A stretch of DNA of 32,000 nucleotides from Oleidesulfovibrio alaskensis DSM 16109 (GTDB lineage Bacteria > Desulfobacterota > Desulfovibrionia > Desulfovibrionales > Desulfovibrionaceae): the NCBI RefSeq assembly GCF_000482745.1, contig NZ_AXWQ01000007.1:122865-154864 (forward strand). The letters run 5' to 3'. This document shows, piece after piece, positions 12,369 to 16,502 of the stretch. Numbering within the stretch: position 1 is the stretch's first letter; the number at the start of each line of letters is the position of its first letter. The position numbers and the translations under genes were made by a program. Under the pieces are notes generated by a model that worked only from the letters and a program-made list of their open reading frames with translations, made no database searches and had not been told where the DNA came from.

Positions 12369-12402
12369 CAAAACATGAAAAAACGGGAGACCGGTGTATA
12401 GT

Positions 12403-13965
12403 ATGGCTTCAGAATCCATAAAGAACGTCATCTTCATCATGCTGGATACTCTGCAGTTCAACTATCTGGGCTGCTACGGCAATAAAGAGGTGAAGACGCC
12501 TAATCTGGACCGTTTTGCCGGGGAAGGCTTTCTTTTTGAAAACGCCTACAGCGAAGGGCTGCCGACCATCCCTGTGCGCCGTGCGCTGATGACCGGACGC
12601 TACACGCTGCCTTACGGCGGCTGGAAGCCGCTGGACCCCGAGGATACCACGCTGACCGATATTCTGTGGTGCCGCGAGGTGCAGACGGCTCTGGTATACG
12701 ATACGCCGCCCATGCGGCTGCCCAAATACGGCTATTCGCGCGGGTTTGACTATGTGCGGTTCTGCAACGGGCACGAACTGGATCACGAGACCTTCAGCAA
12801 GGTACCGCTTTCTGAAAAGTTCAAGCCGGAAGACTATGTTTCGCCCAACTGGCTTACGCGTGATGCGGACGGCGAACTGGACAGCTCCGGCAAATCGCTG
12901 CTGCGCGAGACGGAATGCTATCTGCGTCAGCGGCAGAAGTGGCAGTCGGACGCGGACAACTATGTGGCTGTGGTTGCCCGCGAAAGTGATGACTGGCTGC
13001 GGACCAAGCGCGATCCCGAACGTCCGTTCTTTTTGTGGGTTGATTCCTTTGACCCGCACGAACCGTGGGATCCGCCTTCGGTGTGGGAAGGCCGCCCCTG
13101 CCCGTACGATCCCGACTACACGGGCAATCCGCTGCTGCTGGCGCCGTGGTCCGAAGTGGCCGGTGTGCTGACTGAAGAAGAATGCAGGCATATCCGCGCC
13201 CTGTACGCCGAAAAGGTGACTCTGGTGGACAAGTGGATGGGCCGTCTGTTTGATTCTCTGAAAGAACAGGGGCTGTGGGACAACACCATGGTTGTGGTCA
13301 CATCGGACCACGGACAGCCCATGGGCGAAGGCGAACACGGCCACGGTATCATGCGCAAGTGCCGTCCGTGGCCCTATGAAGAGCTGGTGCATGTGCCCCT
13401 GATGGTGCATGTCCCCGGTCTGAAAGGCGGTAAGCGTATCAGCAGTTTTGTGCAGAACGTGGACATATCGGCCACCATCATGGACGCGCTCGGATACTAT
13501 AATACGGAAGCCCTGCATGATGCGGGGCACGAAAGCATAAGCACCTACGATGCGGAAGATATGCACGGCATCAGCCTGCTTCCGGTCATGCGCGGAGAAA
13601 CGCAGACCGTGCGCGATTTTGCCATTGCCGGGTACTATGGCATGTCATGGTCTATTATAACACATGATTACAGCTATATACATTGGATAACGCGCGAGAT
13701 CGACACAGACTCCATGAACAAGATATTCTACGACGGTTCCGGCAAGGGCGGTAACGCCGGCAGGCAGTCCGCCCAGCTGGAGGTCAAGGAAGAGATGTGG
13801 ACCTGTGTGCCCGGTGCCGAGGTGGCATTGCCGCAGCAGGACGAGCTGTACGACCGGAAAAACGATCCGTTCCAGCTTAACAACATCATCGCCGAACAGC
13901 CGGAAAAAGCGAAAGAGCTGCTGCAGCAGCTCAAGCTGTTCATCGGCGAGCTGAGAACAACCTGA
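12403..13965 (+). CDS. Sulfatase-fold (alkaline-phosphatase superfamily) hydrolase with Thr at the formylglycine position; no signal peptide
   Basis: About 520 aa. N-terminal metal-site strand VIFIMLDTLQ, then FENAYSEGLPTIPVRRALMTGRYT, which aligns without gaps to the sulfatase signature (C/S-x-P-x-R-xxx-x-TGR). Later family motifs are DSFDPHEPW and VVTSDHGQPMGEGEHGHG. The start is ambiguous between GTG 12394 and ATG 12403. Confidence 0.85.
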   Translation: MASESIKNVIFIMLDTLQFNYLGCYGNKEVKTPNLDRFAGEGFLFENAYSEGLPTIPVRRALMTGRYTLPYGGWKPLDPEDTTLTDILWCREVQTALVYDTPPMRLPKYGYSRGFDYVRFCNGHELDHETFSKVPLSEKFKPEDYVSPNWLTRDADGELDSSGKSLLRETECYLRQRQKWQSDADNYVAVVARESDDWLRTKRDPERPFFLWVDSFDPHEPWDPPSVWEGRPCPYDPDYTGNPLLLAPWSEVAGVLTEEECRHIRALYAEKVTLVDKWMGRLFDSLKEQGLWDNTMVVVTSDHGQPMGEGEHGHGIMRKCRPWPYEELVHVPLMVHVPGLKGGKRISSFVQNVDISATIMDALGYYNTEALHDAGHESISTYDAEDMHGISLLPVMRGETQTVRDFAIAGYYGMSWSIITHDYSYIHWITREIDTDSMNKIFYDGSGKGGNAGRQSAQLEVKEEMWTCVPGAEVALPQQDELYDRKNDPFQLNNIIAEQPEKAKELLQQLKLFIGELRTT

Positions 13966-14035: not shown

Positions 14036-14701
14036 ATGGAAGATTTCTGGAGAATACGCGCCACGGACACCGCATGGAAAGGTGTGCTGCATCTGGCGTC
14101 GCCGCGCAGGTACAGCAGGGGCGAAGTGATTATCCGCGCCGGAGAAATGGTGGACAGCCTGTTTTATCTCGAATCCGGCGAAGTGCGCATGATCCGTACC
14201 AGTATGGAAGGATCGGAAAAGATCCTGATGTACATCGAGGAAGGCACTCTGTTCGGCGAAACGCCGTTTTTTACCGGTCAGCCCATCCTGAGCACGTTTG
14301 TGTGTTCGCGGCCTGCGGTTATCTGGCGCTTTTCGCGGCACAGCGTCTATGCCGATCTGCTGCCCAACCATCCGGAAATCGTCAGTTCGCTGCTGCACAC
14401 GTTTGCGGCAAAGGTGAGCACGCTCAGCAACCAGTCCGCCTCGCTGGGACTGCAGAATGTGGCGGAGCGGCTGTGTACGTTTTTGTATGTCACCAGCGGC
14501 GAGAGCATATCCGGTGCCCATGGCGCCGAACTGAAACTTTCCATGAAAATGCGCGATATCGCCAACCTGCTGGGCGTGCATCGCACCACGCTGTACAAAG
14601 CCATCCGCGATCTTGAAAAAGAGGGTGTGCTGGAAAATTTTACCAGAGACAGTGTGCGCATTGCCGATGTGACGCGGTTTCTGGAAATGGTGCATAAATA
14701 A
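14036..14701 (+). CDS. Crp/Fnr-family transcriptional regulator
   Basis: 221 aa. N-terminal cNMP-binding-like beta-barrel (GEVIIRAGEMVDSLFYLESGEVRMI...GTLFGETPFF) and a C-terminal HTH (MKMRDIANLLGVHRTTLYKAIRDLEKEGVL). There is no FNR-type N-terminal Cys cluster. A GGAGA RBS sits 5 nt upstream. Confidence 0.85.
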   Translation: MEDFWRIRATDTAWKGVLHLASPRRYSRGEVIIRAGEMVDSLFYLESGEVRMIRTSMEGSEKILMYIEEGTLFGETPFFTGQPILSTFVCSRPAVIWRFSRHSVYADLLPNHPEIVSSLLHTFAAKVSTLSNQSASLGLQNVAERLCTFLYVTSGESISGAHGAELKLSMKMRDIANLLGVHRTTLYKAIRDLEKEGVLENFTRDSVRIADVTRFLEMVHK

Positions 14702-14702
14702 C

Positions 14703-14724
14703 GGACCGCTGCGGCGGTTTTTTT
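14703..14724 (+). terminator. Putative weak rho-independent terminator after the crp-family gene
   Basis: Short hairpin accgc-tgcg-gcggt (14705-14718) followed by a 7-T run (14718-14724). Confidence 0.4.
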
Positions 14725-14790
14725 CTCACGCAGGGGCGGGCTGCATTGCCCGGCACCTGCCGTGCGGAACATGACGGCAAGGAGCTGTAT

Positions 14791-15102
14791 ATGAGTTTGC
14801 AGACTGTGACGCCGGGCGATCTTGATGCCCGCATAGAACAGACCGCGCAGGGTATTGTGCTGTTTCACAAGGAACTGTGCCCGCATTGCAAGAATATGGA
14901 AAAAGTGCTGGCCAAATTCGGCGCCAAAAATCCCGATGTGGAACTGCTGGCCGTGGACAGCGAAGCAGACCCCGCGGTGATGGAAGCCTACGGCGTGGAG
15001 CGTGTGCCGTCGCTGGTCATCGTGCGCGGGGGGCGGGCCGTGTATACCCGCACCGGTCTTATGAATCCTAAGGAACTGACAACACTGTATCATTCAGTAT
15101 AG
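14791..15102 (+). CDS. Thioredoxin-fold protein with a CPHC active site
   Basis: 103 aa. The C-P-H-C motif (14878-14889) lacks the canonical preceding Trp, and a cis-Pro context is present (VERVPSLVIV). ATG 14791 follows AAGGAG (14779-14784); the track start at 14746 adds 15 unsupported residues. Confidence 0.85.
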   Translation: MSLQTVTPGDLDARIEQTAQGIVLFHKELCPHCKNMEKVLAKFGAKNPDVELLAVDSEADPAVMEAYGVERVPSLVIVRGGRAVYTRTGLMNPKELTTLYHSV

Positions 15103-15133: not shown

Positions 15134-16051
15134 ATGGAAACCAGACAGGTTGATGTGCTTATACTGGGCGGCGGGGTGGCCGGCATGACCGCCGCCGTTT
15201 ACGCCGCCCGCGCGGGGCTGCGTGTGACGCTGCTGGAGGAGAATGCCTGCGGCGGGCTGGTAAACTGGACGCGTGTTGTCGAAAATATGCCGTCCTACAT
15301 CAGCATACCCGGCATGGAACTGGCCGACCGCATGGCGGAACAGGTGGCCGCGCTGGGGGTGGATGTGGAAGAGGCCGCCTGCATTGAAGAAATATCACTC
15401 GCGGCCGGAGACAAAACTGTCGTGGCCGACGATGTGCGGTATGAGGCCCGTGCCGTCATTGCCGCCACGGGGCGCAGGCCGGTGCTGCTGGACTGTGCCG
15501 GCGACTGCTGTCAGGTGCATTACTGTGCCATATGCGACGGCAGCGCGTACAAGGGCCGGCACGTGCTGGTGGTGGGCGGCGGCAACAGCGGATTTGACGA
15601 GGCTCTGGCCCTGCTGGACACGGGTGTGGCACGGGTGACTCTGATCGAGGCGCAGGACAGGTTTTTTGCCGCGGCCGCGGCGCAGCGTGCGCTGGCCGCC
15701 CGTGAGGGTGCAGTCATGTATACCTCCACGCGGGTGACGCAGCTGCACGGGACGGATGCTCTTGAGTCCGTCACGCTGACCCGTGCAGACGGTTCGGAAC
15801 AGCAGCTGCCGTGCGACGGAATATTTGTGTTCATGGGGCAGGAGCCAAGCACGCAGCTTTTCCGCGGGCAGCTGGAACTGGACGCACAAGGCTACGTAGT
15901 CACTGACGGCCTGATGGCCACATCGGTGCCCGGCGTGTTCGCGGCGGGTGACGTGCGGCCCAAGCGTTACCGGCAGATAACCACGGCCCTGTCTGACGGC
16001 ACCGTGGCCGCGCTGGAGGCGGAAAGGTATATCCGCCGTACGGCGGGCTGA
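15134..16051 (+). CDS. trxB: Low-molecular-weight thioredoxin-reductase-like flavoprotein (TrxB family) lacking the NADPH 2'-phosphate motif
   Basis: 305 aa. FAD GxGxxG (ILGGGVAGMTAA), redox-active CAIC (15524-15535; compare CATC in E. coli TrxB), a second dinucleotide fold (VVGGGNSGFDEA) and the C-terminal GVFAAGDV...YRQ...A..DG motif. Where the HRRDxxR motif is expected, the sequence reads IEAQDRF (15644-15664). Confidence 0.88.
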   Translation: METRQVDVLILGGGVAGMTAAVYAARAGLRVTLLEENACGGLVNWTRVVENMPSYISIPGMELADRMAEQVAALGVDVEEAACIEEISLAAGDKTVVADDVRYEARAVIAATGRRPVLLDCAGDCCQVHYCAICDGSAYKGRHVLVVGGGNSGFDEALALLDTGVARVTLIEAQDRFFAAAAAQRALAAREGAVMYTSTRVTQLHGTDALESVTLTRADGSEQQLPCDGIFVFMGQEPSTQLFRGQLELDAQGYVVTDGLMATSVPGVFAAGDVRPKRYRQITTALSDGTVAALEAERYIRRTAG

Positions 16052-16085: not shown

Positions 16086-16502
16086 ATGATGCGCGGCGGC
16101 TCCGGATTTTCGCGTCCTTTCCGGCTGACGCTGTATGACCCAGACCCGCGCCGGTGCCGGGCCACGGCGGATATGCTGCGTCGCGAGCTGGGCCGGCATG
16201 TGTTTCGGGACTTGCGCGGCGGCGTTGTTTCGGCCAATGTCACCGAAGTTGCCTGTTATCTGGCCATAGCCCGGCAGGGATACGCCGACAGTGTTCCCGT
16301 GCTGGAGCTTGACGGCGTTCCGCTGAGCCGGTGTCTGGTGCTGGAACCGCCTCATGTGCGCAGCTTTGCCGCATGGCTGGAGCAGCAGGCGCAAAAGGAA
16401 GACAGGGGCGGTTCTCAGCCGCCCTATCTGCAGCATTGTGGCGGCAGGTTCCCCGACAGGAGTCAGGAGAGCGAACTTATTTTTCCGGAGGATAAACCGT
16501 GA
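16086..16502 (+). CDS. Hypothetical small protein, possibly a degenerate thioredoxin/glutaredoxin-like fold
   Basis: 138 aa, with genome-typical G/C-ending codons. Its last codons carry the GGAGGA RBS (16487-16492) for the next gene, and its TGA overlaps the GTG start of that gene (GTGA at 16499-16502). The pattern RLTLYDPDPRRCRATADMLRREL ... SVPVLELDGVPL loosely resembles a Grx beta-alpha-beta / cis-Pro layout with only one Cys. I recognise no family confidently. Confidence 0.5.
   Translation: MMRGGSGFSRPFRLTLYDPDPRRCRATADMLRRELGRHVFRDLRGGVVSANVTEVACYLAIARQGYADSVPVLELDGVPLSRCLVLEPPHVRSFAAWLEQQAQKEDRGGSQPPYLQHCGGRFPDRSQESELIFPEDKP

Follow-up and report, generated by a model that had tools for sequence, protein, structure and literature searches.

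The window, a stretch of 32,000 nucleotides from Oleidesulfovibrio alaskensis DSM 16109, contains a gene for a thioredoxin reductase-like flavoprotein preceded on the same strand by genes for a Crp/Fnr-family regulator and a small thioredoxin (Table 1). The thioredoxin gene, which lies 31 nt upstream of the reductase, truly starts not at the TTG at 14746 but at the ATG at 14791, which follows an AAGGAG ribosome-binding site. Two genes downstream of the reductase, an 832-aa fused IOR-type 2-oxoacid:ferredoxin oxidoreductase is encoded. The start of this gene is overlapped (GTGA) by a 138-aa ORF at 16086-16502, which has no match in Pfam or NCBIfam and of which weak homologues (33-36% identity) follow the corresponding reductase in two other genera (L019, L020) without an IOR gene.

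The interval between the regulator and the thioredoxin gene (14702-14790) measures 89 nt and contains a terminator-like hairpin. It extends to about 270 nt in a congeneric metagenome-assembled genome (MAG), whereas it is short in D. vulgaris Hildenborough (DvH) and amounts to some 15-40 nt, without such a hairpin, in most relatives (Halodesulfovibrio, Maridesulfovibrio, D. vulgaris). The transcriptional coupling of crp and trx3 may therefore differ in the genus of the window. A promoter scan returned nothing above chance near the genes.

Table 1. Features of the thioredoxin-reductase locus, with positions in the window.
Feature	Position	Strand	Basis
Crp/Fnr-family regulator	14036..14701	+	Pfam cNMP_binding 1.2e-19, HTH_Crp_2 9e-12
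Terminator-like hairpin with T-run, between crp and trx3	14703..14720	+	consensus scan only
Trx3/desulfothioredoxin-type (MreD-like) thioredoxin, 103 aa, active site C30-P-H-C33	14791..15102	+	ATG, ribosome-binding site, PDB match
TR3-type (MreE-like) low-Mr thioredoxin reductase, 305 aa	15134..16051	+	translation, profile, alignment, tree, model
FAD-binding GxGxxG, G12-G17	15167..15184	+	translation; invariant across family alignment A1
C125-C126-Q127, the TR3 'CxQ' signature	15506..15514	+	alignment; published signature (PMC5627308)
Redox-active disulfide C131-A-I-C134, preceded by V-H129-Y	15524..15535	+	alignment of 119 relatives
Pyrophosphate-binding motif G148-G-G-N-S-G-F-D-E156, GxGxxG type	15575..15601	+	alignment
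Box B, V168-TLIEAQDRFFA-A179	15635..15670	+	alignment and AlphaFold model
Weak terminator-like hairpin (5 bp) with T-run, overlapping the reductase stop codon	16041..16056	+	consensus scan only

The reductase reading frame is free of stop codons on translation, and a protein identical at 304 of its 305 positions is found on further NCBI contigs and in many metagenomes, within the same eight-gene neighbourhood. With the frame intact and such copies present on many contigs, a pseudogene was ruled out. The protein is recognized by the Pfam profile Pyr_redox_2 at 3.7e-47 and obtains 253.8 bits against the NCBIfam model TIGR01292 (thioredoxin-disulfide reductase), under the cut-off of 343.45. This shortfall, together with the E-A-Q...F residues that replace HRRxxxR, places it outside the canonical NADPH-dependent thioredoxin reductases. 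With E. coli TrxB, a TIGR01292 enzyme, it shares the two-domain fold, the FAD motifs, the CxxC in the nucleotide domain and the GxFAAGD motif (GVFAAGD in the window reductase). It differs from TrxB in lacking HRRxxxR, in carrying GxGxxG for GxGxxA, and in lacking the G[R/K]G and FF thioredoxin-docking residues. In the alignment, CxQ substitutes for the G[R/K]G docking motif after a deletion of four residues relative to TrxB, and the glycine motif reads GGGNTA in E. coli TrxB as against GGGNSG in both the DvH-type TR3 and the window reductase.

The preliminary description had reported that the FAD fold, the CAIC and the second GxGxxG are retained, and this is borne out by the translation (G12-G17, C131-A-I-C134 and G148-GGNSGFDE-E156). 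It had also placed the stretch VTLIEAQDRFF at the position where TrxB has HRRDxFR, and the mapping to nt 15635-15667 is exact. Box B of the window reductase is VTLIEAQDRFFA, compared with HLIHRRDGFRA in E. coli TrxB; the aligned position reads EVHLIHRRDGFRA in the E. coli K-12 protein (L045) and LHLIHRRDDFRA in the canonical TrxB of the same genome (L001). The reported absence of HRRxxxR was likewise reproduced by alignment with E. coli TrxB, in which Glu172, Ala173, Gln174 and Phe178 occupy the places of His175, Arg176, Arg177 and Arg181 (in the E. coli numbering of the literature), and no arginine is present at the positions of R176, R177 and R181.

Conservation was counted over the columns of a MAFFT alignment of 119 relatives. 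Glu172, C131 and C134 are invariant (119/119), as is the pattern GGGNS[GA]FD[ED], and H129 is found in all but one sequence (118/119), while C125 and Q127 occur in 104/119 and 92/119, respectively. The position after Glu172 is occupied by Lys in 60 of the 119 and by Arg in 2 (DvTR3 having Arg), as against Ala173 in the window reductase, and residue 176, within D-R-F-F, is Arg in 96/119 and Lys in 14/119. An AlphaFold model of the reductase, built on a 44-row alignment (pLDDT 91.7, pTM 0.86), contains a strand at residues 167-171 that stops just before Glu172. Foldseek searches with this model returned low-Mr thioredoxin reductases, with the top TM-scores for structures in the FR conformation (1F6M, 0.90; 5VT3, 0.90; 4UP3, 0.91). 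The segment encoded by 15494-15535 (residues 121-134) holds five cysteines in 14 residues, in the arrangement C121-x3-C125-C126-x4-C131-x2-C134.

The classes of thioredoxin reductase (TR) in Desulfovibrio were defined by Valette et al. 2017 (PMC5627308). In the TR3 class of that scheme, GGGxxAxE is kept and HRR is lost, CxQ stands for G[R/K]G, the His of V-H-Y appears in place of V-S-Y, and a non-canonical Trx3 accompanies the enzyme. The window reductase displays the FAD GxGxxG, GxFAAGD, CxxC, a glycine motif without HRR, CxQ and V-H-Y; a CPHC Trx3 gene adjoins it, and it groups with DvTR3 apart from the TR1 and TRi classes. Judged by its sequence, it is an orthologue of Desulfovibrio vulgaris DvTR3 and a member of the TR3 class, not a new type of enzyme. 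The preliminary description had left the TR3/Trx3 system unrecognized, although it was already characterized for DvTR3 (PMC5627308). The class and its NADH preference are published, and the missing HRR of the window reductase is real and already explained.

The identity of the window reductase to the DvH-type TR3 in genome G044 is 64%. The Trx3 of that genome (3.8 Mb, 2 contigs) is identical to PDB 2L6C over residues 13-104, which identifies G044 as D. vulgaris Hildenborough or a strain almost identical to it. Genes resembling TR3 were found in 19 of the 151 family genomes searched, and a locus search with the window reductase as query gave relatives at 63-75% identity, the closest named genome being an Oleidesulfovibrio MAG at 75%. 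In a maximum-likelihood tree (IQ-TREE), the TR3 clade has a support of 100/99 and is separated from the TR1 and TRi of the same genome, from EcTrxB and from AhpF, and the window reductase and the G044 TR3 fall within a single 11-row subclade, also supported at 100/99.

Among the closest known systems is DvTR3 (YP_009601.1) with DvTrx3, or desulfothioredoxin (DVU0378, PDB 2L6C). The reductases have in common CxQ, V-H-[YF], CAIC, GGGNSGFDE and E-x-x-D-R-F-F-A, and the loci share the upstream CPHC thioredoxin, the Crp regulator and the sulfatase-like gene. They differ in box B, where DvTR3 has TLVERMDRFFA, with Arg after the Glu, and the window reductase has TLIEAQDRFFA, with no basic residue. 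The extra cysteines C121 and C126 of the window enzyme are absent from DvTR3. The genes for the IOR-type oxidoreductase and an acyl-CoA synthetase (ACS) downstream of the window reductase are not found in DvH. The window, Maridesulfovibrio, Halodesulfovibrio and G044 all have the genes in the order NhaC, sulfatase-like, Crp, Trx3, TR3. Among the members of the 11-row subclade with enough flanking DNA, the sulfatase-like gene precedes Trx3-TR3 in all and the Crp gene lies between them in all but L014, and NhaC is also found upstream in the loci with 6-kb flanks. A Crp gene directly upstream of Trx3 is conserved in L009-L013, L015 and L018-L021. The counterparts of the Crp gene of the window are the CRP gene in the mre operon and, in D. 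vulgaris, the regulator beside trx3.

The HRR...R arginines of TrxB hold the 2'-phosphate of NADPH, and in Rossmann folds GxGxxG combined with an acidic residue ending beta-2 constitutes the classical NAD(H) fingerprint. Both signatures, the GxGxxG and the invariant Glu that terminates beta-2, are carried by the window reductase. NADH would be favoured over NADPH because the three arginines that contact the 2'-phosphate in TrxB are gone and because the invariant Glu would pair with the ribose hydroxyls and repel the 2'-phosphate. In E. coli, AhpF uses NADH and TrxB uses NADPH (PMC4960239 Table 1). The C-terminal thioredoxin reductase-like, NADH-using module of AhpF, whose box B is TLLEFAPEMKA, resembles the window reductase in its glycine motif GGGNSG and in the Glu ending beta-2 (TLLEF vs TLIEA). 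This Glu, of a kind that the preliminary description had called typical of NADH preference, is invariant in 119/119 relatives and aligns with that of AhpF. AhpF, whose substrate is AhpC, additionally possesses a double thioredoxin-fold domain at its N-terminus, whereas the 305-aa window protein consists of the thioredoxin reductase module alone; an identity as AhpF was rejected, since the N-terminal tandem thioredoxin-fold domain is lacking.

In PMC5627308, DvTR3 is described as an 'NADH-TR' favouring NADH over NADPH, with strict specificity for Trx3, and the cofactor preference and Trx3 specificity of the window copy would follow from this published orthologue and from the rules of the Rossmann fold. 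Alongside the motifs, orthology, synteny, fold and plausible Trx3 interface observed here, the window enzyme can be regarded with considerable confidence as a TR3-class reductase, the orthologue of DvTR3 and counterpart of MreE, that transfers electrons from NADH through FAD and C131/C134 to the adjacent Trx3. In the proposed mechanism, NADH would donate a hydride to the reductase, the electrons would pass from FAD to the C131/C134 disulfide and, after the FO-to-FR domain rotation usual in the family, would reach the CPHC disulfide of Trx3.

The preliminary description had considered NADH or ferredoxin as the donor. The first part of that proposal is sustained by the orthology with DvTR3, the GxGxxG and Glu172, while the second is not supported, the glycine motif being intact. 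A reductase that is ferredoxin-dependent (FFTR-like) or NAD(P)H-independent (TRi/DTR-like), fed with ferredoxin that the IOR-type enzyme encoded two genes further downstream has reduced, would agree with the missing HRR...R, with the ferredoxin-rich anaerobic character of the organism, and with the presence of that oxidoreductase, which in D. alaskensis G20 is reported to belong to the same mre operon. Such a reductase is nevertheless very unlikely here. FFTR and TRi are recognized by having lost the GxGxxA-type motif as well as HRRxxxR, the two motifs for NAD(P)H (PMC10880999; PMC5627308). DvTRi and clostridial FFTR thus resemble the window reductase in having no HRR but differ from it in that the glycine-rich pyrophosphate motif is also gone. 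Assignment to the FFTR/TRi class was rejected, as this motif is intact in the window reductase and invariant among the 119 relatives. What actual loss of the site looks like is seen in the TRi-type TrxB homologue of the same genome (L005, contig C2), which is distant in the tree and carries GEGIYAAN and VTIITQGKKSSI. It matches the signature VxxxTQGKxxSI published for the NAD(P)H-independent DvTRi, which makes it the enzyme of this genome that is a real candidate for a different donor than NAD(P)H.

Against ferredoxin there is also the statement in PMC5627308 that the orthologue DvTR3 is reduced by NADH, and terminator-like hairpins, as consensus matches only, flank the trx3-tr3 pair on both sides. 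The argument that had been drawn from the IOR neighbour was correct as to its position two genes away, but the conclusion does not hold, since this neighbour is confined to the genus: of the genomes compared, only the congeneric one (L009/L018) has an IOR gene and an ADP-forming acyl-CoA synthetase gene after the reductase, and neither was found after TR3 in the compared loci of Maridesulfovibrio, Halodesulfovibrio and G044. A ferredoxin link should accordingly not be assumed for a TrxB homologue without HRRxxxR, and an intact GxGxxG together with a Glu ending beta-2 is instead the mark of the TR3 class, published as NADH-preferring. The cofactor question on the window reductase is essentially answered.

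An enzyme using both cofactors, with NADPH serving as a physiologically relevant donor although HRR is lost, is unlikely, if less so than a ferredoxin-dependent one. Some turnover of NADPH is implied by the wording that DvTR3 'preferentially' uses NADH, and the conserved Arg176, four residues past Glu172, could still touch the 2'-phosphate. In a 2009 study by Li and Krumholz, the metal-reduction assay of the G20 MreG reportedly contained thioredoxin, thioredoxin reductase and NADPH. The same G20 work is paraphrased as 'NAD(P)H-dependent' in PMC4142287. Opposed to this are the replacement of all three 2'-phosphate arginines, the invariance of Glu172, and Ala173 at a position where 62 of the 119 relatives, including DvTR3 (Arg), carry Lys or Arg. 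It is conceivable, though rather doubtful, that strict NADH specificity has evolved in the species of the window, whose enzyme has E-A-Q and no basic residue at this site and has also acquired the C-x3-CC-x4-C-x2-C cluster.

The assignment of the partner as Trx3 agrees with structural data, as the window thioredoxin matches PDB 2L6C/2L6D with E = 4.2e-29, the next best structure reaching 1e-8. The 2L6C entry is DvH DVU0378 Trx3, and Trx3 pulls down TrxR3 in DvH (bioRxiv 10.1101/2024.09.27.615472). The CPHC motif is invariant in 25 thioredoxin neighbours of TR3 genes, and a CPHC thioredoxin adjoins TR3 in 24 of the related loci examined. A model of the complex of TR3 and FAD with Trx3 obtained a score of 0.72, compared with 0.01 for the best of three controls, a mark that 58 of 80 solved complexes attained, as did 2 of 110 mismatched pairs. 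Agreement of contacts between runs was at least 92%, with a partner pLDDT of at least 88. In the modelled interface, which links residue 126 and C131-D135 of TR3 with L29-H32 of Trx3, TR3 residues 126, 131, 133-135 and 138 contact Trx3 residues 29-32, which brings the two active sites face to face. The passing score may reflect likeness rather than this particular pair, given that a structure of a similar complex, E. coli TrxR-Trx, exists (1F6M). The species-specific Cys126 of the window reductase lies within this modelled interface.

The mre operon of D. alaskensis G20 comprises the MreD thioredoxin, the MreE reductase and the MreG oxidoreductase of the PFOR family, and is implicated in the reduction of U(VI) and Cr(VI) (PMC8963506; PMC4142287). 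The published letters D, E and G fit the window order of Crp, Trx3, TR3, the 138-aa ORF and the 832-aa IOR-type enzyme, and on this gene order the window gene is very probably MreE of the Desulfovibrio (Oleidesulfovibrio) alaskensis G20 mre operon or a strain variant of it. By position, the 138-aa ORF would be 'MreF'. In DvH, the growth of trx3/trxR3 mutants on sulfate and thiosulfate lags, a defect rescued by sulfite or cysteine (bioRxiv 10.1101/2024.09.27.615472).

That the protein is not a thioredoxin reductase in vivo but a flavoprotein disulfide or metal reductase acting directly through its cysteine-rich loop is the least credible of the readings considered, to the point of being extremely improbable. 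The five cysteines within 14 residues, the link between the G20 mre operon and the reduction of U(VI)/Cr(VI), and the in vitro reduction of tellurite by related flavoproteins would suit it. Yet C121 and C126 are species-specific, Cys126 being found in 1/119 relatives; the CPHC thioredoxin accompanies the enzyme in related loci; and in DvH the pull-down of TrxR3 by Trx3 and the normal reduction of U(VI) by the trx3/trxR3 mutants (both bioRxiv 10.1101/2024.09.27.615472) speak against it.

Five TrxB-like genes are present in the genome (Desulfovibrionaceae; 3.55 Mb, 26 contigs). The canonical TR1 (L001) carries GKGISYCALCDG in addition to the box B given above, and L002 on contig C6 encodes a 555-aa AhpF homologue, similar to TIGR03143, that has a thioredoxin-like part (CPYC) at its N-terminus and a thioredoxin reductase module containing HRRD. 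The TR3 pattern is seen twice, in the window gene and in a paralogue located on contig C9. The latter, TR3b, is 305 aa in length, carries ITLVEKMDRFFA, is 58% identical to the window reductase and belongs to a different TR3 subclade in the IQ-TREE analysis. It forms part of a second, paralogous module (L003 1-3795, equal to L036) with the order sulfatase-like, Trx3b, TR3b and transporter, in which Trx3b is a CPHC thioredoxin of 102 aa, the transporter is a 461-aa member of the CitMHS/Na_sulph_symp family, and the sulfatase-like gene is 63% identical to that of the window.

The sulfatase-family gene of the window (12394-13965) has Thr at the formylglycine position (T-I-P-V-R). Of 29 related loci, at least 16 have a Thr-type sulfatase-like gene beside Trx3-TR3 (L009-L015, L018-L022, L029, L036-L039), and this gene, at 80-90% identity, is more strongly conserved than TR3. 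It is conceivable, though rather doubtful, that the Thr-type sulfatase-like hydrolase and its transporter have a dedicated, NADH-driven redox helper in TR3/Trx3, which would then not be a general or metal-reducing system.
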